Shown here piece after piece: positions 890 through 18,364 of a stretch of DNA of 18,364 bases. Source of the stretch: Planctomycetota bacterium (GTDB lineage Bacteria > Planctomycetota > UBA1135 > UBA2386). The notes under the pieces are model-generated. The model was not told the DNA's origin and searched no databases. It was given only the letters and a program-made list of their open reading frames with translations. Both the position numbers and the translations under genes were made by a program. How positions within the stretch are numbered: position 1 is the stretch's first letter; each line of letters opens with the position of its first letter. The stretch covers positions 1 through 18,364 of the forward strand of contig CANMWZ010000052.1 in NCBI GenBank assembly GCA_947501605.1. Reading direction: 5' to 3'.

Positions 890-1139
890 GCGGGGTAGGA
901 CTTCCAAAGGGGCTCCCGGACAACCCGGAAGGCAAGCAGTGTGGCAGCCTTTGCTGTCCCGGCGGCGAAGTGGGCACGCTCGATGGTCGGCGCCAGGCAC
1001 ATTCGATGTGAGACTCCTCAGTTGGTCGCGGTGCGAACGCAGGACTGCCGGCCGACCTGCCGAGGCTGCAGTTCGGGGTTGCTGGGCGCCTGCGCGAACC
1101 GGTCGGCGAACCCGCGATCACCAGGGGCGTCGTGTCTGC
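890..1139. repeat. ~250-bp direct repeat, copy A (copy B at 3827-4076; partial copy C at 6095-6202)
   Basis: Ungapped alignment at offset 2937, with about 11 mismatches counted by eye. The transposase stop codons fall at 1118 and 4055. Confidence 0.95.
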
Positions 1140-1240
1140 GGCGGCGGCTTTGCGTGTGCAACCGACGGCGGTTCGATGAGGAGGCCGAGGTGCCTGAGGA
1201 TTGCGCGAATGCTCTCTGGGTCGTGGATCGAGGCGAGCAG
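890..1240 (-). mobile_element. IS91/ISCR-family remnant 1: transposase C-terminal tail plus ~230-bp 3' region ending in an oriIS-like sequence
   Basis: Minus strand 1240-1118 encodes LLASIHDPESIRAILRHLGLLIEPPSVAHAKPPPQTRRPW*, a typical IS91/ISCR transposase C-terminus. The downstream region ends in CCTTTGGAAGTCCTACCCCGC, resembling the TTT.AA.TTCCTATACC-type oriIS. It is repeated at 3827. Confidence 0.8.
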
Positions 1241-1319
1241 AGTTTTCGGACAGGATGGGCCAGACACCGAGGAGAAGACCATAGACGTATGGGAGAGGGG
1301 GGGGGTACCGTTCTGAATC

Positions 1320-1748
1320 ATGGTGAGGATGCTCCTTGTGGTGTTCTTGGTGTTGCTGGCTACAGCTGCTGTGGAGGATGAGCGAGGCAGCGTTGGGCTT
1401 TGCCTGCTCGAGGTGCGAGATGGGCCGTTCCAGATGCGCTGCACAGGTACCTGCGGTGTCACCGGGGATTGCCCGAACGTTCCGTACCAAGACACCACGA
1501 CATGGGCTCCGACCGTGCTCAATTTCTGCAACTGCGAAGGAGGAGAGACCATCTGGTGCAGTGGCGGGGTTCCTAGTGCCGTCCCGTGTCAGACCTTCGT
1601 AGCGGACTACGGCAACGGAATCCTTATCGCGGCATGCATGGACTGCGGTTGCGGAGCTGCGTTCCCCGAGCCGCCCGGAAGTGGAGCTTGCAAGCGAAGG
1701 ACGGAGCCGAGCGAGGAGTGGCACACGATGTGTGACTGCCCGCAGTGA
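1320..1748 (+). CDS. Secreted cysteine-rich (14 Cys) hypothetical protein, 142 aa
   Basis: Signal-peptide-like N-terminus (MVRMLLVVFLVLLATAA), then two modules each ending in CxC (FCNC, MCDC). First gene of a co-oriented three-gene cassette. Confidence 0.75.
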   Translation: MVRMLLVVFLVLLATAAVEDERGSVGLCLLEVRDGPFQMRCTGTCGVTGDCPNVPYQDTTTWAPTVLNFCNCEGGETIWCSGGVPSAVPCQTFVADYGNGILIAACMDCGCGAAFPEPPGSGACKRRTEPSEEWHTMCDCPQ

Positions 1749-1788
1749 GGGTCTCAGAGATTTGCACGTTTCCCTCGGAGATGGATCG

Positions 1789-3393
1789 GTGAACAGACTC
1801 GTCGCATCGTCCCTGATCGTCCTAATGAGTCTCATTTGGCTCGTGTTCCTGATCGGACGGTCGGATGCGGTAGCCGTGGGTGCGGCGAATTCGCACGAGG
1901 TCGGGGATCCCCTTGCTCGTTCCGGGCCAGAAGCGGTTGGCGCCAATCCGCAAACAGTGCGGCAGCAAGTCGCGTCGCCCGGCGTGCAGATCGAAGTGCA
2001 GGACTCTTCGTCGCGGGCCATCTCCGGCGTAGAGGTCTATGTCGGAGGCGTGGGTCGCAGGTGGATGGATGTGGCTACGGTCCGGGCGCGAGCTAGGACC
2101 GGTGAGGATGGCAGGTGTTCGATCGAAGGTAGTGTAGTCACGCCCCCAAACTCGAGCCGCATGGTCCTGCAGAAAGCTGGCTATGTGACCGCTGTTATTG
2201 AGGCAACACAGCCCGGAGAGCAGTATCTGGTCAGGCTCGAATCTGCAGTCAGGGCAGAGTTGCGATTTGTGGACCAGGGTGGGAATGCAGTCGCTGGGAT
2301 CCGAGCATGGCTGTCGCAGTCCGCAATTCCCTCTAACTGCATCGGCATCGCCAGCGAGGTCATGTGCATTACCGGAGATGGCGGCGATCGCGCAGTCCAT
2401 GCCTCGATCTCGGATTCTCGTGGGGTGGCAGCGTTCGAGAGCCTTGAGCCAGGGGAGTACGTGCTCATGGTTGATCCAGGGATGTGGGCGATCACTCGCG
2501 GCAGTCCTCACCAGAAGCTGGAAATCACAAATGGTGGCGTGGTGCTCGACTTCACTCTGGCGTCTCCCTGGGCCTGCTTCGCCACGGTCACCGGGGATTC
2601 GATCCTGCGACACAAGGTCGTCTTGCCTAAGGGTGCCGCGCTCTCGAACTCGCTGACGGGTCAGAGCTTGGACTACTTGACACGAAGGCTTCGCTCCACA
2701 TATCCGGACTCTATTGTTGATCTATTCGTGCTCAACTCCGGGGCTAGTCCCGATGTCGAACTGGAGTTGATTGCTGGCAAGAAGGGGCGTTTGCGCGTTC
2801 CGCTGAAGCTGGTCCAAGTCGATTCGTTGCGTGATGCTGTTGCCGTCGACCTGTCTGGCTACCCAGACGTAGTCACATCCGCTCTCGTGCTTCCGCGCAT
2901 CGTTTGCCCAGATGGAACCGCGCTGGATGGTCTGCCCATGCTCCTACGTAGCAAGGACGGGGCGATTGCGATGACTACGACGAGCGGCAAGTCCCTGTTG
3001 CTGCCCCCAGGATCTTATGAGGTGCGCAGCTTTGAGCCAGTGCTGTTCAAGGTCGCTCCCGTGGGCACGAGCTTCGAAGTCAACTCGGCAACGCAGTCCT
3101 CGGGGCCCCTGCATGTGGATCTGAAAGCGACAATCCAATTGGTTGTGTTCGAGATCGAGATCGTTGGTTCGGGCGAGAACATCCCAGCGGAGTGCCGCGT
3201 TGTCATTGACAGCCAGTGCGGTGAGTCTGCCTTCGTACTTCGCAGCCAAGTGCGCCTCAAGACTGTCGTTCAACCAGGTCCGGTGAAGGTCAGCATTCAA
3301 GCGGTCGGTGTCCCAACACACGTGATCGAAAAGACCGTGGAGTCAAAAGCGGGGGGTGAGGTGGAGCGTTTGGTCGTAGATCTGGGGACGTAG
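1789..3393 (+). CDS. Membrane-anchored protein with carboxypeptidase-regulatory-like (prealbumin/beta-sandwich) repeats, ~534 aa
   Basis: Likely GTG start at 1789 with GGAG at 1777-1780. N-terminal TM segment (LIVLMSLIWLVFLI). Repeats IEVQDSSSRAISGVEV...TGEDGR...KAGY and RFVDQGGNAVAGIRA...SDSRGVAAFESLEPGEYVL; later LLLPPGSYEV and VQPGPVKVSI. Confidence 0.75.
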   Translation: MNRLVASSLIVLMSLIWLVFLIGRSDAVAVGAANSHEVGDPLARSGPEAVGANPQTVRQQVASPGVQIEVQDSSSRAISGVEVYVGGVGRRWMDVATVRARARTGEDGRCSIEGSVVTPPNSSRMVLQKAGYVTAVIEATQPGEQYLVRLESAVRAELRFVDQGGNAVAGIRAWLSQSAIPSNCIGIASEVMCITGDGGDRAVHASISDSRGVAAFESLEPGEYVLMVDPGMWAITRGSPHQKLEITNGGVVLDFTLASPWACFATVTGDSILRHKVVLPKGAALSNSLTGQSLDYLTRRLRSTYPDSIVDLFVLNSGASPDVELELIAGKKGRLRVPLKLVQVDSLRDAVAVDLSGYPDVVTSALVLPRIVCPDGTALDGLPMLLRSKDGAIAMTTTSGKSLLLPPGSYEVRSFEPVLFKVAPVGTSFEVNSATQSSGPLHVDLKATIQLVVFEIEIVGSGENIPAECRVVIDSQCGESAFVLRSQVRLKTVVQPGPVKVSIQAVGVPTHVIEKTVESKAGGEVERLVVDLGT

Positions 3394-3396
3394 ATC

Positions 3397-3795
3397 GTGG
3401 CGCTCCTTCTCCGTATCCTCGTCTGTGCCTGCCTGATGCTCTCGGGAGTTACCAAGTTGTTTGGCGGGGTGACCAGCGATGCTCTGCTGTCTCCGCTTGC
3501 TTCTTCTGCTCTTGCCTGTGCAGAGTGCTTGGTCGCGGTGTGCATCGCTATTGGCGCCTTCACGCGTCCGTGCGCTTGGTTTGCGGTGGCGCTCGCTCTC
3601 GGTGGTGTCGTGCTTGCACTGTTCTTCCCACGTGTGAAGTGTGGCTGCTTCGGGCCAGTGCTCCTCGATCCGAGGCACCGGCTGGCATTGGCGGCGACTC
3701 TCGGCGTGTGTGCTGTGCTGCTGCTCGAGTCCGATAGGGATCGCGTCAAGCTGCATCGAGACTCGTCCCACGGTCGTAAGGGTGAGTCGGCCTGA
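3397..3795 (+). CDS. MauE/DoxX family redox-associated membrane protein
   Basis: About four hydrophobic segments, SGVTKL near the N-terminus, a conserved-type Glu (CAECLVA) and the CGCFG motif characteristic of MauE-like proteins. It starts 3 nt after the upstream stop. Confidence 0.8.
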   Translation: MALLLRILVCACLMLSGVTKLFGGVTSDALLSPLASSALACAECLVAVCIAIGAFTRPCAWFAVALALGGVVLALFFPRVKCGCFGPVLLDPRHRLALAATLGVCAVLLLESDRDRVKLHRDSSHGRKGESA

Positions 3796-3826
3796 ACCGG
3801 AATCGTTACATTGAATGCCCGCGAGG

Positions 3827-4402
3827 GCGGGGTAGGACTTCCAAAGGGGCTCCCGGACAACCCGGAAGGCAAGCAGTATGCGAGCCGTGGCTGTCCCGGC
3901 GGCGAAGTGGGCACGCTCGATGGTCGGCGCGAGGCTCATTCGAGGTGAGACTCCTCAGTTGGTCGCGGTGCGAACGCAGGACTGCCGGCCGACCTGCCGA
4001 GGCTGCAGTTCGGGGTTGCTGGGCGCCTGCGCGAACCGGTCGGCGAACCTGCGATCACCAGGGGAGTCGTGCCTGCTGCGGCCCTGGCAGTGGGGGCAGG
4101 TCCGCACCTCGATGAGGTAGGCGCGGCAGCGACAGCACCCATTGGCGCACCGGCACGTGGGGCAACACCGAGTCGACGAGATGCGCCGCGAGATCGTTCC
4201 TGCGACGACTGCCGCACGACGGGCACATGCCGCGACGCTTGCACGAGAACGCGACCAACTCATCCTCACCGCATTGCGCGCAGTGCACGCGGCAGAAACC
4301 GTGCGCGAGGATGCCGCAGCGCAGGTGGTCGTTGAGTTCGCGGCGGACGAAGCCGGACAGCGAACGTTCGCCGCCGTCGACCTCGAGGCGTGCGAGGTAG
4401 AT
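3827..4402 (-). mobile_element. IS91/ISCR-family remnant 2: oriIS-like end plus internally deleted transposase
   Basis: Second copy of the 250-bp end (3827-4076), directly followed by transposase fragments on the minus strand. Confidence 0.85.
4055..4402 (-). pseudogene. IS91-family transposase pseudogene (Zn-binding N-domain spliced to C-terminal pieces; catalytic core deleted)
   Basis: FVRRELNDHLRCGILAHGFCRVHCAQCGEDELVAFSCKRRGMCPSCGSRR...VLPHVPVRQWVLSLP (transposase zinc-binding domain), then RAYLIEVRTCPHCQGR in another frame, then QQARLPW*. Confidence 0.9.
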
Positions 4403-4615
4403 CTCGGCAGCGGCAACATCCTGATGAGACCTGACGACCAGTATCTGTGCATCGTCACCGACAGCCGTAGCCAGCTCGATGGCGAGCCGATCTTCCTGCC
4501 GTCCGAGGGCGACCGCACGCTGTCGTTGATCCTGTCGAAGGCGATGGTGCTGGCTGCAGATCGTGAGATCACGGATCCGACGATCACGCGGCAGATCCGG
4601 CGGCGCGGCGGCTGA
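4403..4615 (+). pseudogene. 3' fragment of a DUF4132-associated (DUF7737-like) gene
   Basis: LGSGNILMRPDDQYLCIVTD...IFLPSEGDRTLSLILSKAMVLAADREITDPTITRQI* matches my recollection of the C-terminal domain of DUF4132 proteins. The 5' part is replaced by transposase sequence on the opposite strand. Confidence 0.7.
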
Positions 4616-4682
4616 GCTGAGTGCGAGGGCGGCGGGTGTTTCCAAGAGGCCGAGTCGCCGACGAGAACAGCCGAGCGCGAAA

Positions 4683-4994
4683 TCAGAGATCCGCGAAGCC
4701 CGGGTCGCAGAGCGGCGATCGCGACCAATCGACGGCCTCGCCAAGGCTCTTCAACGCGGCAAGCCAGAACCAAGGCCGTCCGGTCGGCACGCTATAGAGG
4801 ATGGCGTGCGCGCGGTGGCGAAGGTCTGCTGCCACGGCTGCGTCGCCGCCACTCATCAAGCAGTAGAGGGCGCGCCAATCCTCGGTGGAGCCGCGGTCGA
4901 GGATCTGGGCGAGGATCTCGTCACTGCGGAGATCGAGATGCGAACGGTTCCACAGCGCACGCGAACGGGCCAGCACCTGCATGGGGTCGTTCAT
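4683..4994 (-). CDS. Small hypothetical protein, putative antitoxin partner (DUF6922-like), 103 aa
   Basis: ATG at 4994 with strong GGAGGGAGG upstream, 5 nt after the nucleotidyltransferase stop. The sequence ALWNRSHLDL...ILAQILDRGSTEDWRAL resembles the W.....LD...I..VL.RG...DW pattern of small proteins found beside AbiEii toxins. Confidence 0.7.
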   Translation of the reverse strand: MNDPMQVLARSRALWNRSHLDLRSDEILAQILDRGSTEDWRALYCLMSGGDAAVAADLRHRAHAILYSVPTGRPWFWLAALKSLGEAVDWSRSPLCDPGFADL

Positions 4995-4999
4995 GACGC

Positions 5000-5689
5000 C
5001 TAGCCTCCCTCCGACAACTGCAACCAGATCGCCGCGATCACCGGCCCCAGCGCGCGACCTCGCCGCCGCAGTTCTTCGAGATCGCGCCACGGCGCGAGCA
5101 CCTGCCGGTAGCTCGTCAGGTCGACGCGATCCAGATCCTGCGGTGCGGCCGTGCCCAGCTTCTCGATCAACTCCTCGACCACCGAACCACCGCCCGGCCC
5201 ACGTTCGTAGCAGGCAGTGAAGGAACGCACGAACTCGGGCATGGATGACGCGGCCAGGTGCTCCAGCAGAGCCACCGTGTCGAGGTAATCGCGCACCGTG
5301 TTGCGGCTGATCAGCATCCAGGCCTTGATCCGGGCCGTCTCGATCAGGCTCGGGGTCCGAAGCCCATCGATGGCGACCGTTTCGAGCGGGCGCTTGCGAC
5401 GCAGTTGGCGAACGCCGGTCGGGATGCCATCCATGGCACCAAGGATCAGCACGGGGGGCTGGATGCGGGCGGTGGTCCAACCCGGGGTAGCTTCGAGTTT
5501 CTGCAGGGTCTCGTCGAAGTGTGCCTGCAGGTCGGTGAGCACGTGGTCGCCATCGAGGCTGGTGCGATGGTGCAGATGCAGGGCCGCAGCAGTACCACCG
5601 ACGAGTACGGCATCGGGCAGCACGGCCTGCAGACGGCGCTGCGCAGCGAGAAGGTGCTGCCAGTCCTTGGTGTGCTCGCCGTTGGTCAT
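5000..5689 (-). CDS. AbiEii/AbiGii-like nucleotidyltransferase toxin, 229 aa
   Basis: VLVGGTAAALHLHHRTSLDGDH (GG.A...HR.S.D.D NTase motif) and IKAWMLISRNTVRDYLD (K......R...RD..D motif). Start chosen at ATG 5689. Confidence 0.85.
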   Translation of the reverse strand: MTNGEHTKDWQHLLAAQRRLQAVLPDAVLVGGTAAALHLHHRTSLDGDHVLTDLQAHFDETLQKLEATPGWTTARIQPPVLILGAMDGIPTGVRQLRRKRPLETVAIDGLRTPSLIETARIKAWMLISRNTVRDYLDTVALLEHLAASSMPEFVRSFTACYERGPGGGSVVEELIEKLGTAAPQDLDRVDLTSYRQVLAPWRDLEELRRRGRALGPVIAAIWLQLSEGG

Positions 5690-5989
5690 TGCGATCGTGG
5701 GAACGTGCGAGGGAGTATCGGCAGCAAGGGGAACGTCGGCAAGGCGACTTGGCTCGTTCCGCGGACGCAGCACAAGGGGCAGTGCATCACCGCACCGTGA
5801 AACTCGTCGCGCTCGCGGCGAACGTCTGCACGCCGCCCTGCTGCGGGTCGAGTTCCACCGACCTCACCGGCTCGTGTCTTCACCCGGAACTGCACGGGCA
5901 GACAAGGTCGCGCCGCCGGCCGATGTCGCCGCGTGCGTCGCCATGCTGAAGGACGGCCCGGCGCCGGCGCGCGATGCGGCGACCTTGGC

Positions 5990-6958: not shown

Positions 6959-8565
<1,607 letters not shown>

Positions 8566-9107: not shown

Positions 9108-11318
9108 TCAGTCGACCGGCTTCTGCGCCATGGCGACGAGGTTCTGCAGAGCGGCGACTCGCGGGTTGCGCGTGTCGGCGCCGGCCGACAGTGCATTGAT
9201 GAGGCTGGCCTGCGCCAACTCGACGTGGCCGGCCTGCAGCTCGGCGAACGCGAGGTTTGCGTGCAACTCTGGCGGCGCGTCGGCACCAGCCGAGGCGCGC
9301 ATCAGTTCGAGCGCTTGCTGCTGCTCGCCCAGAGCGAGCAGTGCACCGCCCAGGTTCGCGGCCGTCATCGGCGTGTTCGCGATTTCGTGGGCCCGTTGCA
9401 AGAACCGGCGAGCCGCGTGGGGCGTTCCGTCCGTGAGTTCGAGGGCGCCACGGGCAGTCAGAGCGAGTACGTCATCAGCACCGGTGACGATCGCGCGTTC
9501 CAGCAGTTGCCGCGCGCGACCTGGGTTGCCGTTGCGTGAGTGCATCGTGCCCGCCGCGACGAGTGCTTCGTGGTTGTCTGGTTCCAGATCGAGCGCCTTC
9601 TCGATGGTCGCAATTGCCTGTCGTTGGTGACCCTGATCGAGCTCCATCTGGGCCTTCGCGAGCATGTGTGAGGCCAGCCCCTTCCGCGTGACCGTCAGGC
9701 CCGCGTCCTTTGGCATCGCCAGCGGACCACTGTCGCGAAGGTGCGCTTCGGGCCCGGGCGCGGCCATCGCGCGTCCCTGGAGCGAACCCGACGACCAGTC
9801 CTCCGGCCGATAGCTGTCCAGTTGGATCGAGTTCCATTGGAAGCCGCGACGCAGTTGCACGAGGCGGTGCGAGCCGCGGCGAATCTCTTCGTCGATCCAG
9901 GTGTCGTCGAGGATGCGCGGTGACAACAGGATGATCAGCTCGACCTCGACACGGTTCTGCACCGTGCTCGAGAACAGCTGACCGAGATACGGAAGGTCCA
10001 TGAAGAACGGAACGCCCTGTCGCGTCTCGTTCTTGCGCGTGCTGCGCAAGCCGCCCAACGCAATCGCCTGGCCACTGGCGACGCGGACGATGGTCGTCGT
10101 CTCGCGTTGGCTGATGATCGGGACCTGCACGAGGCCGTCCGGCGTGATCACGGTGCCAGTCTGCTCGCGGACCTGCGGCGTGAGCGAGACGGACAAGACG
10201 CCGTCTTCGCCAATGACCGGATGAACCTGCAGGGTCACGCCCGCTTCGACAAAGTCGACGCCGTACTCGGTGCGTGCCACACCCTGATCGTCGATGACCT
10301 GACGGGTGATGACGGGGATCTGGTCGGTGACGCCGATGGACGCCGACTGATTGTTCATCGCAGAGACGCGCGGGCTGCTGAGCACTCGCAGCTGGCCTTG
10401 CGACTGGAGCGCATCCACGAACACCGAGAAGTCGCCGGTGTCGAGGACGCCGAAGCGGAAGGCGGTTCCACCCGACGCCGCCGTCTGTGCGGCAATAGCG
10501 CCACCACCCGCGAGCCCGCCCTTGTTGCTGTTGAACAAGTTCGGCAAGACCGACCAATTGACGCCCAAGCTGTGTTGGTCGTCGAGTCGGACTTCGAGGA
10601 TGCGGGCTTCGAGCGAGACTTGTTTGTTGGCGCGACGCACCGTCGTGTCGACGAGTTCGCGGAGTCGCGCGATGCCACTTGGACGCGCTTCGACATGGAT
10701 CGTCGAGACGGAGCGATTGATGACACTGGTCGCGTTCTCGCCGAGCAACGTCGGCAGCGCGGCCTGAATGTCCTGCCAGAAGCCAATCGCCTGGCCGCCA
10801 CCGCCACCGCTAGCGCCAGCGCCGCCGGCGCCACCAGCACCACCGCCGCCGCCACCGCCCTGCTGCGTGCTCCCCGCATCGATCAGGTCGATGTGCAGAG
10901 TCGCGCGCACGCGGTCGCGAACACGCAGGTAGTTACCGTCCCATTCATAGCCAAGGTCGAGGCTCGTAAGCAGCGCTTCAAACGCCTCCTCGACCGTCGA
11001 CTTCTTGATGTCAAAGGTGCACTCGGTGGGCTGAACGGACGGATCGATCATCAGGTTGATGTCGGAGTCCTTGAACAAGGCCAGCAGTACATCGCCGATC
11101 GGGGTTCTGCGAGCTTGCAGCGCGTCCATCGGTCGACCGCCGGCGGCCTCGCTGCGCTGCAGCGATGGCATCGGTACGACCAGCATCGGCTGGTAGACCG
11201 GCTTGCCGCCGCCGTCCTCCTGATCGTGGTGCGGCGGTGTCGGGCCGGTGAGGCTCTGACAACCGGAGAACGCGACAACGGCGGCCGCGAACGTGAGCAA
11301 CTTCGAGAACGTCATCAC
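9108..11318 (-). CDS. Lipoprotein secretin (MshL/GspD-like) with C-terminal TPR extension
   Basis: Lipobox AFSGC; STN-like domain; Gly-rich insert; QVSLEARILEVRLDD...LGVNW, VLSSPRVSAMNNQSASI, GVTLQVHP, GVPFFMDLPYLGQLF, ELIILLSPRI. Followed by TPR-like helices (AIATIEKALDLEPDNHEAL...). Start is GTG 11318 or ATG 11315. Confidence 0.92.
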   Translation of the reverse strand: MMTFSKLLTFAAAVVAFSGCQSLTGPTPPHHDQEDGGGKPVYQPMLVVPMPSLQRSEAAGGRPMDALQARRTPIGDVLLALFKDSDINLMIDPSVQPTECTFDIKKSTVEEAFEALLTSLDLGYEWDGNYLRVRDRVRATLHIDLIDAGSTQQGGGGGGGAGGAGGAGASGGGGGQAIGFWQDIQAALPTLLGENATSVINRSVSTIHVEARPSGIARLRELVDTTVRRANKQVSLEARILEVRLDDQHSLGVNWSVLPNLFNSNKGGLAGGGAIAAQTAASGGTAFRFGVLDTGDFSVFVDALQSQGQLRVLSSPRVSAMNNQSASIGVTDQIPVITRQVIDDQGVARTEYGVDFVEAGVTLQVHPVIGEDGVLSVSLTPQVREQTGTVITPDGLVQVPIISQRETTTIVRVASGQAIALGGLRSTRKNETRQGVPFFMDLPYLGQLFSSTVQNRVEVELIILLSPRILDDTWIDEEIRRGSHRLVQLRRGFQWNSIQLDSYRPEDWSSGSLQGRAMAAPGPEAHLRDSGPLAMPKDAGLTVTRKGLASHMLAKAQMELDQGHQRQAIATIEKALDLEPDNHEALVAAGTMHSRNGNPGRARQLLERAIVTGADDVLALTARGALELTDGTPHAARRFLQRAHEIANTPMTAANLGGALLALGEQQQALELMRASAGADAPPELHANLAFAELQAGHVELAQASLINALSAGADTRNPRVAALQNLVAMAQKPVD

Positions 11319-11974
11319 TTGGTTACCTCTGGCGGTGTGCTTCGCGGCGCGCCCGTGTTCGTCGGTGCGGCCGAAGTCGCTTGCTGCGCGGCTACTTGCT
11401 TCGCAGCGAGCCGGCGTTGGACTTCGGATCGGAACTCTCGGGGGTTCGGGTCCTCGAGGTCATACGTCAGGATCTTCCCGTTCCACGACAGCACGATCTG
11501 GCCGCGCTCGATGGCGACGACCTTGCCGTTGCTGATGGAGTCGTTGATCCCGAGAACGCTGCCACCCAGAACCGCTCGCCGCGACGCCGCGCTGATCATG
11601 ATGACGCCGAGCGACAAGGACGGTGGATCGGCGCCGATCCACGCCTCGCTCATGAGGAGGCCACTCTCACCGCCGGGCGCCGAAAACGCGGAGGCATCCG
11701 CGGCTTGCACGAATGCCATTCGCACGCTTTGGCTGCCGGCGTAGGAGCCGTGGACGGCAAGGAGGTCGCGCCACGCGATCTGGCTCTCCGACTCTGCGTC
11801 GCTGGCTTCCGCTTCCGCCAGCATGGGGTCTTCGCCAAGCGCATCGCCGATGGCCGCGAGCCCGTTGTCGAACTTCGAGCCGAAGATCTGGCGCGCTGCG
11901 ACCGTCGCACTGATCACGAAGATCAGCGCGGCCAGTGCTGGGTGCATCCCCTTCTTCTTCTTTGCCTTTCTCAT
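11315..11974 (-). CDS. MshK/PilP/GspC-like assembly protein, 219 aa
   Basis: ATG at 11974 overlaps the upstream stop (ATGA). One TM helix, then LSLGVIMISAASRRAVLGGSVLGINDSISNGKVVAIERGQIVL, typical of the HR-like beta domain. Located just before the secretin. Confidence 0.7.
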   Translation of the reverse strand: MRKAKKKKGMHPALAALIFVISATVAARQIFGSKFDNGLAAIGDALGEDPMLAEAEASDAESESQIAWRDLLAVHGSYAGSQSVRMAFVQAADASAFSAPGGESGLLMSEAWIGADPPSLSLGVIMISAASRRAVLGGSVLGINDSISNGKVVAIERGQIVLSWNGKILTYDLEDPNPREFRSEVQRRLAAKQVAAQQATSAAPTNTGAPRSTPPEVTK

Positions 11975-12477
11975 TGGCCAGTGCCCTCGTGGTAGGTGGC
12001 GAGCGCTAGCTCGAATGCAATCTCGGCTGCTGTCCCCGGCGACACTCGTCCCGACTCGGCGATCACGAGGCGGGCGCTGTCCTCGATCCCGGCGAGGAAC
12101 TTGCAGACCTCGTCCGGAGTACCGATGCCGCTGATCTGGAAGGTCTGCTTGCCGGCGGTCGCGGACTGCGCTGCCTTGACGCTGCCGAGTTGGATCTTGC
12201 AAGCGTCCGCGATGCCCTGGATGAGTTGCAGCGTGCCGGCGACGTCTGGCGTCTTCAGGAGTTGCTGTTCGACGGCGATGATCTTGGGTGGTGGTTCCGC
12301 CGCTCGTCGTCGGGCGTTCTCGATCATCTGGCCGACGAAGTCGAGCTGGCTCTGTTGCGAGGCCAGGTCGCGCTCCGCGGCTTTGCGCGACCACTTGGCG
12401 AGCCCCGCCAAGCCCAGTTGCAGCAACGTGACGGCGCCCACGATGGCGAGAACTACAGTCTTCTTGTCGAGGCGCAT
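11971..12477 (-). CDS. PilO/MshJ/GspM-like inner-membrane protein, 168 aa
   Basis: ATG at 12477 (TGATG coupling). TM helix, coiled coil, then a ferredoxin-like tail FQISGIGTPDEVCKFLAGIEDSARLV. Confidence 0.75.
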   Translation of the reverse strand: MRLDKKTVVLAIVGAVTLLQLGLAGLAKWSRKAAERDLASQQSQLDFVGQMIENARRRAAEPPPKIIAVEQQLLKTPDVAGTLQLIQGIADACKIQLGSVKAAQSATAGKQTFQISGIGTPDEVCKFLAGIEDSARLVIAESGRVSPGTAAEIAFELALATYHEGTGQ

Positions 12478-13901
12478 CAGGAGTTCCTCCAGGCGAGGCT
12501 CAGACGGAAGCGGAAGCGTCCGGGCTGCCCGGCGACTTCGTTGATCTCTTCTTGGCCGGCCTCCTCGAGGTAAGGCAAACCGTGGATCAGATGTGTGAAG
12601 TCCGCGAAGGCGTCCAGCGCTTCCTTGCGCGTTTGGCTGTCGATCAAACCACTGACGATGATGCGCTCCGTGCTGGCGAACCGGAGCTCTTCCAAGCGCA
12701 GCTGTGCGTTCGTGCTGTTGCTGATCTCCGCCAGCAGTCGACTCAGCGGACGACGCATCGACAGCGCACTGCGGAGGCTCGCTTCGGTGGCCGTGGTGTC
12801 CGGCGGCAACGCGAAGGTCGATTGAATCTCGCCCAACTGCTGCTGCAGCTCCATGTGCTGTTGCGCGGACTGCGTGACTTGCAGACGAACTTCCGTTGTC
12901 GACTGGAGATCGGTAACAGCGCTGAAGGTGCACGCGAAACCGAATGCCGCAGTGCCAATCAGCGAGGCCCAGCGAGTCGCGCCCCATGGCAGCGAGAGGC
13001 GTGGCGGTTGCAGCAGTGATGGCGGCTCGGTGCCGGCGCCAAGGCACTCGATGAGCTTCATCACGCCGAGCCCGGGGTTCGCTTGCGAAGTCGCAACCGA
13101 AGTGGTCACGAGTGCGCGTTCGACCGACTCGAGGTCGCCACGGATCATTGCGATCGTGGCATCGTCGATCGCGACGCGCGTGCCCAGGACCAGGCGATGT
13201 GGTACTGGGCATCCCGTCTCGCGCAACCACTCGATGGTGCGTGGGAGCTCCATCATCAATTGTCCGGCGAACGCCTCGGCTCCGGCTTCGTTGCCGCCGC
13301 CGACCAAGAACCGGCGCACCCGAACTGGCGCGTTGCTGTCGCAGAGCACGAAGCGCGCTCGTCCCGAGTTGAGCTCGACGACGGCGGTTTGCTTGCCCGT
13401 CGACGGCTGAGCCGCGGTCGCAGCAAGCGCAAGACACGACTCCATGGAGTGCAGCGACAGAACTTCGATGCCCGCCTGACGGAAGGCCTCCTGGATCGGC
13501 TCCCAGACGTTGCGGGCCAGAGCTGTCGCTGCCGCGACAATCCGCTTGCCCGCCAGCGTGCGGAGCAGTCGAGTCGACACCAGCACGTCGGCGGCTGCTG
13601 GCATGCCCGTCAGACGAAGTGCCTCGCGGACGACGAAGGCGGTGGTGTCTGCAGGTGTGAGCTGGGGCGCGGTGGTGACGAAGTGCTGCACGCGGCGATC
13701 GCCGAGCACGACGTGGACACCCTTGCTGCCCTCGAAGAGCGCACCGTCGGCGCCTCGCAGCGCCTTGGCCACACTGTCGCGTCCTAGGTCGGCGAGCGGC
13801 AAGCGCACAGCACGCAGCACTTCGCCCTTGCGGCCGTCGTGCTTCGCTGCCGTGATCGAGAGCGCTCCCTCTTCGAGTTCGACAATGGTGAGGTAAGTCA
13901 T
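12477..13901 (-). CDS. PilM-PilN-like fusion (GspL/MshI-type architecture), 474 aa
   Basis: Actin-like N-part (LTIVELEEGAL; AVVELNSGRARFVL), TM helix, coiled coil, and PilN-like tail LLAEISNSTNAQLRLEEL...IIVSG...FRFRL. Confidence 0.75.
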   Translation of the reverse strand: MTYLTIVELEEGALSITAAKHDGRKGEVLRAVRLPLADLGRDSVAKALRGADGALFEGSKGVHVVLGDRRVQHFVTTAPQLTPADTTAFVVREALRLTGMPAAADVLVSTRLLRTLAGKRIVAAATALARNVWEPIQEAFRQAGIEVLSLHSMESCLALAATAAQPSTGKQTAVVELNSGRARFVLCDSNAPVRVRRFLVGGGNEAGAEAFAGQLMMELPRTIEWLRETGCPVPHRLVLGTRVAIDDATIAMIRGDLESVERALVTTSVATSQANPGLGVMKLIECLGAGTEPPSLLQPPRLSLPWGATRWASLIGTAAFGFACTFSAVTDLQSTTEVRLQVTQSAQQHMELQQQLGEIQSTFALPPDTTATEASLRSALSMRRPLSRLLAEISNSTNAQLRLEELRFASTERIIVSGLIDSQTRKEALDAFADFTHLIHGLPYLEEAGQEEINEVAGQPGRFRFRLSLAWRNS

Positions 13902-13908
13902 GAGAGCT

Positions 13909-14559
13909 TCAGATCGTGATGTCGTCCGCTGTGCCGAAGGTGCGATCAGGGCCAGCGCTGGAGAGCGTGTGAGCGGTTTCGTTCCACGACAGAACGACGC
14001 CGAAGCCGTCCTGGTCGTAGATGGACCCGAGGCCCATTGCCGTGCGAACGGTCGGCCAAGTGCCGACGATCGAACCGCCGGACTCGATGTGGTTGGCCAA
14101 GACCTCGATGGCGATGCGCAGCTTCATCCAGGTCTTGCGCGATCCGGGAACGCCGCCAAAAACCTGCACCCCGAGTTGCTCGCGGGCGAAGCCGTCGTTG
14201 CGACCATTCTCGCCGATGCTGTGCACCGTGGCGAAGTTCTGCGCAGCGTTGACTGCGTAAATGTAGGAGACGTTCTGACCGAACGCGTCAACCGTCGCGG
14301 TGCTGGCGAACCCCGGCTGCAGATGCACGCCGAAGAAATCAGTGGCTGTCAGAGTCGCTGGAAAGCTGGCATGCTCGAAGTAGTACGAGTCGAGCGCTGA
14401 TGCGAGCGTGTCCAGCTCTTGCTGGGCTTCGGTGCGGCGCTTGTTGACGATGACGGCGCTGGCCAGCGGCATCGCCGAACCGAGCAGCAGGCCGAGAACG
14501 CCGAGTACCACGACTACTTCGATCAGCGTGAAGCCCGCTTGCCGTTCACATGTCGTCAT
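13909..14559 (-). CDS. Prepilin-type (pseudo)pilin, 216 aa
   Basis: Class III signal QAG|FTLIEVVVVLGVLGLL; ALDSYYFEHASFP; C-terminal SAGPDRTFGTADDI. Confidence 0.9.
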   Translation of the reverse strand: MTTCERQAGFTLIEVVVVLGVLGLLLGSAMPLASAVIVNKRRTEAQQELDTLASALDSYYFEHASFPATLTATDFFGVHLQPGFASTATVDAFGQNVSYIYAVNAAQNFATVHSIGENGRNDGFAREQLGVQVFGGVPGSRKTWMKLRIAIEVLANHIESGGSIVGTWPTVRTAMGLGSIYDQDGFGVVLSWNETAHTLSSAGPDRTFGTADDITI

Positions 14560-15358
14560 CGGTTCCCCCTCTGCGATCCCAACCGATCGCGATCACGCCG
14601 AGCGATGGATCCAAGATCAGCCTGCGACCGCTGCCGTCGAGCGCGAGATTGTCTGGGCGACCTAGTGCCGCCATCAGGCCACCGGCGCCAGTGAGCGCGG
14701 TTGGCATGGTCAGGAGGCCGTGCAGGAAGCGAAGGTCACCGATCGTGTCTTCGGCCGCGGTGATCGCGGTGGTCAGTGCGGTCCGTTCCGGGTCCGTTGC
14801 TTCGCGCCAAGTCCGGCGAGCCGAGGCGATGGTCCGCGTCGCGTCGCGCATCGCCGTGACTTCTGCGGGCGACATGGTCGTTGCATGCCGGTACGGGCTC
14901 GCGAGCAAGAGTGCTCGCAGCAGTCGAAGACGAGCCCGTTGACGAGCGCGCAGTAGGTCCTCGCCCGGGACGGCGAAGACGAAGTCGTCGGCAGTGTTGA
15001 GACGCTGGTCTGGACCACGGCTGCGAACTTGCGCTCCGGTCGCAGTGCGCGCGTAGGTCAGGTCCTGTGCTGCCCCGTAGGGATCCAGGCGCCAAGCTCC
15101 AGCGGCTGGAAGTCCGCTCGCGGTCACCAGCGCGTTCAAGTTGGCCGGGAACGCACCGTTTCTTGCGAAGGCAGTGCGCGCAGCCGCTGCCGCAGTGCCG
15201 AGGTTGGCTTCCACCCTGCGGGCTCGACCAGCGAGCGGTGGCAGGAAGTTCTCGACCGCGAGCAAAATGCTCATCGAGCCGAAGCCGATGACACCCAAGA
15301 GTAGCAGCAGGGCGAGACCGCCTTCGCGATGTCGGACGTGGGTAGCGGGGTGCTTCAT
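14546..15358 (-). CDS. Atypical pilin-like protein lacking Glu+5, 270 aa
   Basis: REGG|LALLLLLGVIGFG; FARNGAFPANL; LDPYG; SRGPDQRLNTADD; C-terminal IGWDRRGGTDDD. Overlaps both neighbours. Confidence 0.75.
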   Translation of the reverse strand: MKHPATHVRHREGGLALLLLLGVIGFGSMSILLAVENFLPPLAGRARRVEANLGTAAAAARTAFARNGAFPANLNALVTASGLPAAGAWRLDPYGAAQDLTYARTATGAQVRSRGPDQRLNTADDFVFAVPGEDLLRARQRARLRLLRALLLASPYRHATTMSPAEVTAMRDATRTIASARRTWREATDPERTALTTAITAAEDTIGDLRFLHGLLTMPTALTGAGGLMAALGRPDNLALDGSGRRLILDPSLGVIAIGWDRRGGTDDDM

Positions 15359-16560
15359 TTGCCGATTCCCTTCATCGCTGAGTAGATGGTCCCGACAACG
15401 AGCACCGCGACTCCGCCGACGATCAACCCGAGTGCAACCGTGACGATTGGCTCCAGCAGTGCGAGGGCCCGCTTCACCGCTTCCTTGACCTCGCGATCGT
15501 ACAGCCGGCTGAGGCGGCCGAAGGTGATCGGGAGTCGGCCGGCTTCTTCGCCGACCTTGATCATGCTGAGGGCGACCGGCGGTAGCGCCTCGGTCTCTGC
15601 AAACGCCTCGCCGAGTCTGGCGCCGCTGATGATGCGATCCCGAGCATCTTCGACCTGATCGCGAAAGCGCGGCGAGGTGACGGCCGCGCCGCCGAGTTCG
15701 AGGGTGGTCGTCATCGTCAATCCAGCTTCGAGCAGCACACTGCAGGTGCGGCAGAATTGGGCGATGGCGAGCGTGCCGATCACATTGCGTGCAACCGGCA
15801 TCGCCGAGAGCGCGTTGGTTGCCATGCGTTGGAACGCAGCGGTGCGCAGCATCATGGCTACGGCAGCCATCGCGGCGACGGAGCCGAGCGAGATCGCCAG
15901 GATGTTCTCAGCGACGAACCCGGAGCAGGAGATCAGCAGGCGGCTGGCCGGCGGCAGATCGGTGCCGATCTTGCTGATGACCGAGGCCAGGCGCGGCAGC
16001 ACGAACGCCAGCAAGAACAACATCATCGAGTAGCCGGCGACGGCGACGACGATGGGGTAGACGAGTGCCTGCTTGACCACGCCAGCGATCTCGATCTTCC
16101 ATTCGAGGAACCCGGCGATCGATTGCAGGACGCTTGGCAAGCTGCCGGACTGTTCGCCGGCACGGACCAAAGCGCAGTACATCGACGGAAAGGCTCGCGG
16201 ATGCGCCGCGAACGAATCGGACAGACTCTGGCCAGCGGCTACGCGCCGTTCGACATCGGCGAGCAGCGCGGCGATTCGAGGATCCTCCTCTTGTTCGCCA
16301 ACGGCCCGAAAGGTCGAGAGCATTGGCACGCCGGCGTCGAGCGCCTCGTGCAGTGCTTGCGTCAGCAGCAGCAGACGGCGCGGCGTCAGCCGGACGGTGG
16401 ATGTCGTGGCGGCTTCCGCGGGCGGATCGAGTTCTCGGACCTTGACGAGAACGCGGCCCTCGCGGTGCAGCGTTTCGTGCAGTGACTGCGCATCGGGGGC
16501 GTCCAGCTCCATGGTTGCCGTGGAGCCGTCCTGTTCGAGGATGGTCGAGCGGAAGCGCAC
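15355..16560 (-). CDS. Type II secretion system F / PilC / MshG platform protein
   Basis: AGVPMLSTF, GQSLSDSFAAHPRAFPSMYCALVRAGEQSGSL, ALVYP, MIKVGEEAGRL, LLEPIVTV. Confidence 0.93.
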   Translation of the reverse strand: MRFRSTILEQDGSTATMELDAPDAQSLHETLHREGRVLVKVRELDPPAEAATTSTVRLTPRRLLLLTQALHEALDAGVPMLSTFRAVGEQEEDPRIAALLADVERRVAAGQSLSDSFAAHPRAFPSMYCALVRAGEQSGSLPSVLQSIAGFLEWKIEIAGVVKQALVYPIVVAVAGYSMMLFLLAFVLPRLASVISKIGTDLPPASRLLISCSGFVAENILAISLGSVAAMAAVAMMLRTAAFQRMATNALSAMPVARNVIGTLAIAQFCRTCSVLLEAGLTMTTTLELGGAAVTSPRFRDQVEDARDRIISGARLGEAFAETEALPPVALSMIKVGEEAGRLPITFGRLSRLYDREVKEAVKRALALLEPIVTVALGLIVGGVAVLVVGTIYSAMKGIGK

Positions 16561-16639
16561 GGGGACATCCAGTGGGGGCAGAGGGGGTGGATCGGGCGCG
16601 GCGCTGGGAGGTGAGGCCCTCAGGGCGCGACCGGTTCGA

Positions 16640-17293
16640 TCACTGGCGCTGCGTCATCAGCACACCGAGGTCGTCACCGGTGATGTCAGTCGTCGCCGTG
16701 GCGTTGGCGTTGGTGTCGAAGCGGCCGTTCGGACCGGCCGACAGGACGTAGAGACGCTTGTAGGTCGTGGTGCTCACCGAGTGGCCGGAGATCACGTTGA
16801 CGATGTATGGGCGACCCCAGGGATCGAGCGGCGAGCTGCCAGCGATGTAGGGGCCGCGCCACTGGCTCGTGCCCGTGACCGGATAGGCGGCGCCAGCCGT
16901 TCTCTGCGGCGTGTTCGTCAGCAGGTGGTTGTTGAGCAGGTCGCCACGCGCACCGCTCATGCCCCACGTGACCCAGTTGTGTCCCGCAGAGTAGGGGTTG
17001 GTGGTCGGCATCGTCGGGCCACTCAGCAGCGTGTAGACCTGGTTGTTGGTGCCAGAGCTATTGCGCGCGGGGTAGACACCGGCATGGCTGTAGAACTGCA
17101 TTACGGCCGCTCCCAAGACCTTTGCTTCGGCTTCGGCGCGAGCGCGACGGCCGTCCTCCATGTAGCTGCTCAGCATGGGGACTGCGATTCCCGTCAGCAG
17201 CAGAACGACAGACAGCACGACGATGACCTCGACGAGCGTGAATCCGTCAGGGCGCGCGCGGCGAGGTGAGAGTGCGGCGACTACATGGGCCAT
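16640..17293 (-). CDS. GspG-like major (pseudo)pilin, ~217 aa
   Basis: Likely ATG at 17293. DG|FTLVEVIVVLSVVLLL; FYSHAGVYP; WRGPY; LDPWGRPY; LSAGPNGRFDT...GDD. Confidence 0.9.
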   Translation of the reverse strand: MAHVVAALSPRRARPDGFTLVEVIVVLSVVLLLTGIAVPMLSSYMEDGRRARAEAEAKVLGAAVMQFYSHAGVYPARNSSGTNNQVYTLLSGPTMPTTNPYSAGHNWVTWGMSGARGDLLNNHLLTNTPQRTAGAAYPVTGTSQWRGPYIAGSSPLDPWGRPYIVNVISGHSVSTTTYKRLYVLSAGPNGRFDTNANATATTDITGDDLGVLMTQRQ

Positions 17294-17393
17294 GCGATGG
17301 GTATCGGATCGGGATTGATGCCAACGTGTGCGAGGTACGGAGTTGTTCGCCGGCGCCTCAGGTCGGCCAGTCGTCTTGGTCGATTGACTCGAG

Positions 17394-18364
17394 GTGGCAG
17401 AAACCAAGAACGACCTCCTCTCGGCCCTGGCCGCCACTCTCGACGAGGAGCGCTCGTTTCTCGAAGTGCAGCTCGGCGAGTGCCCTTCCGGAGAGGCCGC
17501 CCAGATCGAGAAGCTGGTGAGCTTGGGGGCGATTTCCGAGGAGCAGGGGTATCGGGCATGGGCCGAACTGCTCGGGCTCGAGTTTCACACGCTCGATGAC
17601 CGCTCGCTCGACTCGAAGATGCGGCACAAGTTGCCGGTCGACGTGGCGCTGCGGCACCAGGCCGTCGTAGTCGCCCAGGCGACGGACATCCTCTCGGTGG
17701 CATTGAAGAACCCGTTCGACCTACTGGCGGTCGACGAGATCCAAGAAGCCACGGGCCTGTCGGTGCAGGTGGTGCTGGCGACGCCGAAGTCCATCACCAC
17801 GGCGCTTGAGCGTCAGCAACGAGGTTCCTCGGGCATCGAGGGTCTGATCCAGCGCCTGATGAAGTCGGAGATCGGCATCGACAGCGTGTCCGACGCCGAC
17901 AAGCTGCGTCGCATCGTCGGCGACGATGCCGTCGTCAAGCTCGTCGACCATCTGGTGGAAGAAGGGATGCGCGCCCGCGCGTCAGACATCCACGTCGAGC
18001 CACAGCGCGACGGGTTGCGCGTGCGCATCCGCGTCGACGGCGAGATGGACACGCTCTACACCCTGCCAGCGGGTCTACACCGCGCCGTGGTCGCGCGCAT
18101 CAAGGTGGCGAGCAACATGGACATCGGCGAGAGCCGCAAACCGCAGGACGGGCGCATCGCGGTTTCGGCCAAGGTCGAGTTGCGTGTGTCGGTGCTGCCG
18201 AGCGTGCTCGGCGAGAAGGCCGTCATGCGCGTGCTCGATCGAACGGGCGTGCGTCTCGATCCCGAGCGCCTCGAGATGTCGCCACACAATCTCGCGCTGT
18301 TCCGTCGCGGCTACACCGCACCAAACGGCATGTGTCTTCTCACCGGGCCGACCGGCTCGGGCAA
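17394..18364 (+). CDS. GspE/PilB/MshE secretion ATPase (3' truncated by window; absent from the ORF track)
   Basis: GTG at 17394 after an in-frame TGA at 17385, open to the window end. VALKNPFDLLAVDEI, VVKLVDHLVEEGMRARASDIHVEP, RIRVDG, RIKVASNMDIGESRKPQDGRI, ELRVSVLP..GEKAVMRVL, Walker A start LLTGPTGSG at the window edge. Confidence 0.95.
   Translation, partial: MAETKNDLLSALAATLDEERSFLEVQLGECPSGEAAQIEKLVSLGAISEEQGYRAWAELLGLEFHTLDDRSLDSKMRHKLPVDVALRHQAVVVAQATDILSVALKNPFDLLAVDEIQEATGLSVQVVLATPKSITTALERQQRGSSGIEGLIQRLMKSEIGIDSVSDADKLRRIVGDDAVVKLVDHLVEEGMRARASDIHVEPQRDGLRVRIRVDGEMDTLYTLPAGLHRAVVARIKVASNMDIGESRKPQDGRIAVSAKVELRVSVLPSVLGEKAVMRVLDRTGVRLDPERLEMSPHNLALFRRGYTAPNGMCLLTGPTGSG

Follow-up and report, generated by a model that had tools for sequence, protein, structure and literature searches.

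A recurring three-gene unit in Planctomycetota that joins a candidate twin cystine-knot protein to an anchored beta-sandwich protein and a MauE-like membrane protein

Introduction

Growth-factor cystine knots, which occur in the TGF-beta/BMP/GDNF, PDGF/VEGF, DAN and glycoprotein hormone families, carry a published signature, CXGXC plus CXC, wherein the glycine makes space for the threading disulfide (accessible text of PMC12203953; the knot connectivity is also given in the accessible part of PMC3328748). In such a knot, Cys I pairs with IV, II with V and III with VI, and the I-IV bond threads the ring. According to the accessible portion of a 2025 report (PMC12038028), cystine knots have so far been seen only in eukaryotes, apart from that report's own candidate, a cystine knot-like domain proposed for the secreted protein Wcw_0502 of Chlamydiota. 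Here we describe a three-gene unit, hereafter called the cassette, on an 18,364-nucleotide stretch of Planctomycetota DNA (contig CANMWZ010000052.1, the window), which is contig C52 of a 4.65-Mb genome that is 91% complete. The cassette encodes a small, probably secreted, cysteine-rich protein, a large and putatively membrane-anchored beta-sandwich protein, and a membrane protein resembling MauE. The unit recurs in related genomes, and its small proteins are probably the first family in bacteria to carry the growth-factor knot signature.

The small protein resembles the growth-factor knots in its CXGXC and CXC motifs, its apparent signal peptide, its four predicted strands in two hairpins and the top ranks that these proteins take in structural comparison, and a miniature example of such a knot exists in conotoxin sigma-S-GVIIIA (PDB 9EBE). 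Unlike them, it is bacterial, would build each knot from approximately 45 to 50 residues with short fingers, carries its two candidate knots in one chain rather than in a dimer, usually has a longer ring in the second, and has no detected sequence homology to them. Wcw_0502 differs as well, since the accessible text describes a type III effector with cysteines at 108, 110, 113, 153, 155 and 161 and without CXGXC, and it reports no oxidase or partner gene.

For the membrane protein, the closest described relatives are two MauE proteins that replace DsbB in E. coli, require their CXC motif, and share F-G after the CXC, a lysine in helix 1 and a glutamate in helix 2 (accessible text of bioRxiv 10.64898/2026.03.05.709764). 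The cassette enzyme is likewise a membrane protein with CXC-F-G and the conserved lysine and glutamate, as in this pathway and the mau cluster. It departs from both in scoring below the Pfam cut-off and in having no MauA, MauD or thioredoxin in its cassette, and it is tied and sometimes fused to the beta-sandwich protein and appears dedicated to a client rather than generalist. Homologues of mauE outside the mau cluster have also been found in candidate clusters for RiPPs (peptides made on the ribosome and modified after translation) in Streptomyces, where they were proposed to modify a small product (PMC7794033). Going by the accessible portion of that report, those clusters belong to another phylum and have other precursors, and neither a twin-knot protein nor an anchored beta-sandwich partner is described there. 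Finally, the large protein has the same repeat type as CarboxypepD_reg (PF13620) proteins, including fusions to extracytoplasmic function (ECF) sigma domains in the same genome, and as NOMO; unlike other CarboxypepD_reg proteins, the cassette form is approximately 520 to 590 residues long, very divergent, devoid of a cytoplasmic domain, and mostly encoded beside a Cys-rich gene. The parts have known folds, and the combined system fits no named kind that we know of. Searches of the open-licence PMC and bioRxiv literature yielded no description of the cassette or of a bacterial growth-factor knot family, in agreement with the first-pass annotation of this DNA, which knew of no named system of this composition.

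Results

The three genes form a recurring unit

The first-pass annotation, made from the sequence alone, had noted three tightly spaced genes on the same strand, and this arrangement holds (Table 1), with gaps of 40 bases between the small and large genes and 3 bases between the large and MauE-like genes. Its descriptions of the three products are likewise confirmed: the small open reading frame (ORF) encodes 14 cysteines behind hydrophobic residues 1-20, a likely signal peptide; the large protein has an N-terminal hydrophobic helix and CarboxypepD_reg-type repeats; and the third protein contains K20, E43 and C82-G-C84-F-G86. The assembly is supported by contigs from other sequencing runs (labeled X9, X10, X11 and X13; G000 denotes the genome of the window and L numbers the collected regions), of which a DNA contig from X10 covers 1084-3477 with one difference and one from X11 bridges 3128-3856, and such contigs confirm the gene junctions of the trio.

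Fifty-one MauE-like proteins (49 matches plus the two copies from G000) were aligned. In a search with this alignment, 40 of 91 genomes of the same family yielded 80 places and the other 51 none, and in a sample of 401 genomes from the phylum 22 gave a match. Every non-self family place, 78 in 76 regions, was collected together with 20 of the 23 new phylum places, the three weakest being omitted. A Cys-rich gene, defined as a same-strand frame ending in at least 11 Cys within 150 residues and lying no more than 3.6 kb from the MauE-like gene, was present at 62 of the 78 family places and at 15 of the 20 outside the family, compared with 286 of 5000 random positions (5.7%) in G000. The large gene was found at 65 family and 14 other places and the full trio at 56 and 13, respectively; 46 of the counted loci had gone into the large-gene profile, so the count for this gene is partly circular, whereas the Cys count is not. 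In six of the 16 family misses the contig stops within 1.9 kb on one side (L047, L059, one L092 place, L095, L107 and L109), and the others, except for two lone genes considered in the Discussion, have different gene contexts.

The order of the genes is not fixed. Assignment by hidden Markov model (HMM) gave small-large-MauE at 36 loci, small-MauE-large at 5, MauE-small-large at 2 and large-MauE-small at 1, and the MauE-like protein is fused ahead of the large protein at L040, L041 and L109 (sequence reading) and at L124 (HMM); L105 and L110 were also flagged as fusions and may be read-through or broken. The genome of the window holds a second complete trio on contig C66 and a third small and large pair that is cut by the end of C69, and a single genome may contain as many as nine MauE-like places. 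When the search was reversed by using a small-protein profile built from the MauE loci, 31 of 38 small-protein places coincided with known MauE loci; of six further non-self places, five have a large gene, one has a MauE-like gene, three show no MauE-like gene within 2.2 to 2.4 kb downstream and two are cut by contig ends. Single-protein locus scans of genome contigs, metagenome contigs and plasmids gave no match, and word-index protein searches returned only three proteins each. The neighborhood comparison that had been proposed for this locus therefore finds the trio co-occurring widely, in shuffled orders and with MauE-large fusions, and the three genes are a recurring unit. At one further locus (L138:1267-2061), two tandem twin-module small genes precede a single large gene.

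The small protein has two six-cysteine modules, the first with a growth-factor knot signature

The small protein of the window consists of two six-Cys modules plus an extra Cys pair, C80 and C109. The two-module structure and the growth-factor knot signature had both been overlooked in the first reading. Module 1 has the layout C-x12-C-x-G-x-C-x5-C-x18-C-x-C, which places CXGXC and CXC within one six-Cys set and is the eight-residue-ring signature of the growth-factor knots. Module 2 repeats this arrangement of six Cys, except that four residues separate its second Cys from its third. The C80/C109 pair appears jointly in closer relatives of the window protein, and the two residues likely form a seventh disulfide.

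Fifty proteins match the strict two-module pattern, with a median module of C-x15-C-x3or4-C-x5-C-x14-C-x-C, and the median identity among small proteins is 10.5% outside the Cys residues. Where the gap at the ring position is three residues long, its center is Gly in 29 of 30 cases in module 1 and 3 of 4 in module 2, compared with 3 of 26 three-residue gaps elsewhere and a 12% background, although these counts come from related sequences and are not independent. The final CXC of module 2 is present in all 50 proteins, and its ring gap is three residues in 4 of them (Gly in 3). Among the 43,704 six-frame segments of the genome, the one-module signature occurs a single time, at this locus. Mature small proteins are acidic, with a net charge of zero or below in 43 of 44.

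Variation around this design was also observed. At L078, L085, L093, L100, L101, L126 and L134, the second module is rearranged, with a CC pair and without the final CXC. A second type of secreted Cys-rich protein, with CxxC near both ends and no CXGXC, is followed by an N-anchored partner of 250 to 290 residues; it occurs at three places in the genome of the window (L001:16536-17045 and 15675-16529, C56:6001-7380, and C6:77048-78523) and at L072, L076, L079, L095 and L103. A MauE-like gene lies alongside in other genomes and at none of the three own-genome places, and the same maturase seems to serve this second client family. Contig C56 also has a low-GC segment (2337-5769) encoding a secreted 14-Cys protein, a 210-residue protein and a 782-residue anchored beta-sandwich protein, where no MauE was seen.

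Growth-factor knots rank first, at low scores, for the model of module 1

AlphaFold2 modeled the mature two-module protein with a predicted local distance difference test (pLDDT) score of 82 and module 1 alone with 83 (predicted template modeling score 0.55), the latter with strands at residues 3-8, 13-18, 28-33 and 40-45. As a model, module 1 shows four antiparallel strands in two hairpins, the arrangement that characterizes growth-factor knots. On comparison with 48,161 solved chains, ranks 1 through 13 were all growth-factor knots, which account for 14 of the 22 chains at Z of 2 or above. The top ranks include activin A, GDF15, TGF-beta2, NBL1, PDGF, artemin, GDNF and glycoprotein hormones, as well as the 41-residue conotoxin 9ebe (Z 2.6, root-mean-square deviation (rmsd) 3.0, 40 residues aligned), and the top 13 alignments mostly span nearly the whole module. 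In our reading of the DSSP strand limits, Cys I faces the ring Gly in both models, and the model of module 1 alone sets Cys IV against Cys VI rather than Cys V. Sequence comparisons revealed no such kinship: Pfam assigned no knot family and no toxin family to 44 small-protein members, two profiles detected no homology to animal knot families among PDB sequences, and the ESM Atlas gave no usable match for two family members. We consider the predicted fold of the small protein, two growth-factor-type cystine knots, probable.

The MauE-like protein has the residues of disulfide-forming MauE proteins

Scores against the Pfam MauE family (PF07291) were 19.6 and 18.7 bits, below the gathering score of 27, and those against DoxX were 22.9 and 24.2 bits around a cut-off of 23.6; NCBIfam gave only a weak BT_3928 match and left the other two trio proteins without a match. 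Nevertheless, the features of MauE are present, namely CXC-F-G, the helix 1 lysine, the helix 2 glutamate and a multi-pass membrane topology. K20, C82, C84 and G86 are invariant in the 51 aligned sequences, E43 is found in at least 90% of them, and the window protein has F85. The protein is likely a disulfide-forming enzyme on the strength of these residues.

DsbB, VKOR, DSBA and Thioredoxin_4 had no match in the genome of the window, as far as it is complete, whereas these models matched 3 to 9 of 14 control genomes, and this lack would explain why the cassette has its own oxidase. MauA also had no match, although its model matched none of the 14 control genomes and the result is thus no proof of absence. 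By analogy with the described MauE proteins, the CXC motif likely passes disulfides to the client. The earlier proposal that a MauE-like protein here serves a different disulfide-rich client is supported by the wide co-occurrence and by the active-site residues.

Three observations concern MauE-like sequences elsewhere. A short fragment with CNCFG adjoins a transposase-like gene (G000 C39:42641-42865), a large-protein gene at a contig end follows an apparent truncated remnant without CXC (G000 C42:33841-36012), and at L074 a MauE-like gene lies behind a different kind of anchored protein (644 residues) and a small gene poor in Cys.

The large protein and its predicted contact with the small protein

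The large protein is built of an N-terminal hydrophobic helix, a low-complexity linker and prealbumin-like (CarboxypepD_reg-type) beta-sandwich repeats. PF13620 is matched by 33 of 47 members; the window protein scores 29.1 bits, under the cut-off of 32.3, and Pfam has no match for the window small protein. Among proteins of solved structure, NOMO2 of the BOS complex gives the family its best sequence match (E 2.8e-14). Because the N-terminal helix is internal in the MauE fusions, it likely remains uncleaved and anchors the protein. There is no cytoplasmic domain, and therefore any signal would need another protein. Members are divergent, with a median identity of 18%, and have no conserved Cys (the best column reaches 18 of 47), for which reason we rejected a role for the large protein as a redox relay. 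Its profile matches 28 places in the genome of the window, 4 of them with a Cys-rich neighbor, and in 3 of 16 paralogues that were scanned the repeats are joined to ECF sigma domains, which suggests that such ectodomains can sense.

Modeling of the small and large proteins as a pair, as the first-pass annotation had proposed, supports a contact weakly, with a score of 0.55 against 0.01 for the best control. In calibration, 116 of 157 solved pairs reached the mark, as did 2 of 215 mismatched pairs, but scores of 0.60 or below among those reaching it belonged to only 18 of the 157 solved pairs and to both mismatches. At least 59% of contacts are shared between runs, and the partner pLDDT is at least 52. 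Across 30 loci, variation in the small protein weakly follows that in the large one (Mantel r 0.195, p 0.001), which shared descent alone can produce, compared with 0.079 (p 0.12) for the large and MauE-like proteins. The modeling thus tips slightly toward a contact between the small protein and the large one.

Discussion

The explanation that we tentatively prefer, while rating it a little short of even, is that the cassette makes a MauE-oxidised twin-knot ligand that is held on a cognate anchored partner, the two forming a strain-variable recognition pair. The small protein would be exported across the inner membrane, as its N-terminus implies, and oxidised by the MauE-type enzyme, with disulfides going from the CXC to the client, possibly without a thioredoxin relay, while the anchored partner would keep the client at the membrane beside the enzyme. 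The folded twin-knot protein would be bound by its membrane-anchored beta-sandwich partner, and variation in both proteins would yield strain-specific ligand-binder pairs for recognition. A recognition or signaling role is the least supported part of this proposal. A bolder and rather doubtful version holds that the cassettes are a large, diversifying bacterial ligand-receptor code, made of single-chain twin growth-factor knots, cognate anchored binders and private disulfide enzymes, in which the knots would share the fold of animal TGF-beta, PDGF and hormone signals, having either converged on it or remained as a relic from its origin. If true, the proposal would bear on whether the growth-factor signaling fold arose once or several times. 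The cassette is also a direct test case for the folding of a six-to-seven-disulfide client by MauE without a thioredoxin relay, offers dozens of natural small variable scaffolds, and would be a genetically encoded route to knot production in bacteria.

Several observations weigh against the preferred explanation. The knot fold scores low, with Z at 2.2-2.7 and rmsd at 3.0-5.4 A, as is expected for approximately 50 residues, and the case for a knot therefore rests on rank, signature and strand register jointly. Foldseek gave no match for the two-module or module 1 models, structural comparison of the two-module model returned no knot protein and only gamma-glutamyl transpeptidases (Z 2.4-2.7), and the motif by itself may lead AlphaFold to model a knot. 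The gap in module 2 is four residues in 30 of 50 proteins, which is not the classical ring. With regard to the enzyme, the accessible text of 10.64898/2026.03.05.709764 presents MauE as a generalist that works via thioredoxin and cites a report of possible MauE reductase activity. MauE-like genes stand alone at L043 and L045, small and large genes occur with no MauE-like gene in the 2.2 to 2.4 kb downstream at L136, L137 and L140, and genome G043 gave no MauE-like match. If anchored in the inner membrane, the large protein would face the periplasm, which suits a carrier as well as a receptor. Lastly, expression of the cassette is not demonstrated by the contigs of runs X9, X11 and X13: X9 and X11 cover 29 of 30 bins of 12 kb, the pattern that DNA carry-over gives, and X13 covers parts of the cassette and of other genes in patches; contigs cannot rank genes.

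The carrier possibility can be stated as a maturation-only system, in which the large protein would take the place of MauD/DsbA beside MauE, as a carrier in folding or export that releases the finished knot protein toward a target elsewhere. We regard this as unlikely, even though MauE is fused to the large protein rather than the small one, a thioredoxin is missing from the cassette and neither of the two DsbA-type families is matched in the genome, NOMO2 is the best solved match, and the weak complex prediction is equally compatible with it. A carrier lacking conserved Cys could not be a redox relay, the divergence of the large protein is what would be expected for a specific binder, and small and large pairs exist with no MauE nearby. 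An improbable reading makes the knot protein a polymorphic, venom-like effector acting on microbes or protists and the large protein an immunity factor or decoy that protects the producer. The highly variable loops, the number of places per genome and the patchy presence (40 of 91 genomes), the GC content below that of the flanks at most cassettes, and the likeness to the conotoxin knot would all fit, but the mature proteins are acidic, unlike cationic antimicrobial peptides, none of 44 members matches a toxin family, and an anchored multi-domain protein of 530 residues would be an unusual immunity protein.

Two further rivals concern single components. That the small protein is instead EGF-like, with a shifted Cys register, or adopts a new two-hairpin fold would leave the logic of the cassette unchanged; we consider it quite improbable. 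Its only sequence matches are weak EGF-like ones (E 0.029 and E 4.6), with one of 44 members reaching E 0.036 for EGF-like in Pfam, and the structural comparison puts plant EPF2 14th and an EGF domain 22nd (Z 2.0), all Z values being below 3. Against these stand the ring-position Gly rule, the strand register of Cys I and Cys IV described above, and the 13 knot proteins that rank higher. The remaining rival, that MauE is the cell's general disulfide enzyme and only incidentally a neighbor of secreted Cys-rich genes, is very hard to credit. The generalist description cited above and the lack of another detected oxidase in the host speak for it, but the linkage at 62 of 78 places in several orders, the fusions, the multiple copies per genome and the absence of any match from 51 of 91 related genomes speak against it, and they largely refute its chance-neighbor version.

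Genomic context of the cassette

The GC content is 58 to 62% in the 500-base bins from 1501 to 3500, compared with 66.2% for the genome, and other cassettes conform in that 24 of 28 testable cases lie below their flanks. The trio is enclosed by two direct repeats, the right copy of which adjoins an IS91 zinc-finger fragment (Table 1). Contigs from other runs depart from the window at the repeat edges (887-889 and 3825-3827), as expected for a mobile end present at many sites. IS91-type flanks were considered as a component of the system and rejected, as blastn detects them at 2 and tblastx at 3 of 102 other loci, and the repeats are local context outside the system. The description of the trio as mobile in the first-pass annotation consequently stands in part: low GC, direct repeats and the IS91 fragment agree with it, but the IS91-type flanks belong to this locus and few others. 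No sigma-70 promoter and no terminator were found at the cassette.

Table 1. Features of the cassette and its flanks, with positions in the window.
Feature	Positions	Strand	Basis
Small protein, 142 aa, 14 Cys	1320..1748	+	ORF, hydrophobic residues 1-20
Module 1 of small protein (C28-C72)	1401..1535	+	Cys layout, model
Module 2 of small protein (C90-C140)	1587..1739	+	Cys layout
Large protein, 534 aa, GTG start	1789..3393	+	ORF, hydrophobic N-terminus, beta-sandwich repeats
MauE-type membrane protein, 132 aa, CGCFG	3397..3795	+	ORF, active-site residues
Left copy of 256-nt direct repeat, likely end of IS91-type remnant	890..1145	.	Repeat comparison
Right copy of 256-nt direct repeat, 95% alike	3827..4082	.	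Repeat comparison
IS91-type transposase zinc-binding domain fragment	4127..4366	-	PF14319, E 2.7e-18, residues 127-206 of ORF 4055-4744

Similar repeats were noted on another contig of the same genome (L001, G000 C55), where five diverged copies of the IS91-type end (1864, 7323-7533, 10442, 14690 and 17202) lie 2.5 to 5.6 kb apart with unrelated gene sets between them, resembling a cassette array. Within the window, a DUF7737 match (4142-4615, E 2.3e-22) overlaps the IS91 fragment on the opposite strand. Between IS91-type remnants lies an AbiEii-like nucleotidyltransferase gene (5000-5773, minus strand; E 3e-4, below the cut-off), and a small ORF downstream of and overlapping it (4683-5020, minus strand) may complete a toxin-antitoxin pair. 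Farther along, positions 9108-17437 (minus strand) hold a type II secretion or type IV pilus-like cluster, in which Pfam identifies a secretin with a TPR tail and two N-methyl pseudopilins, together with likely PilC- and PilM-like genes.

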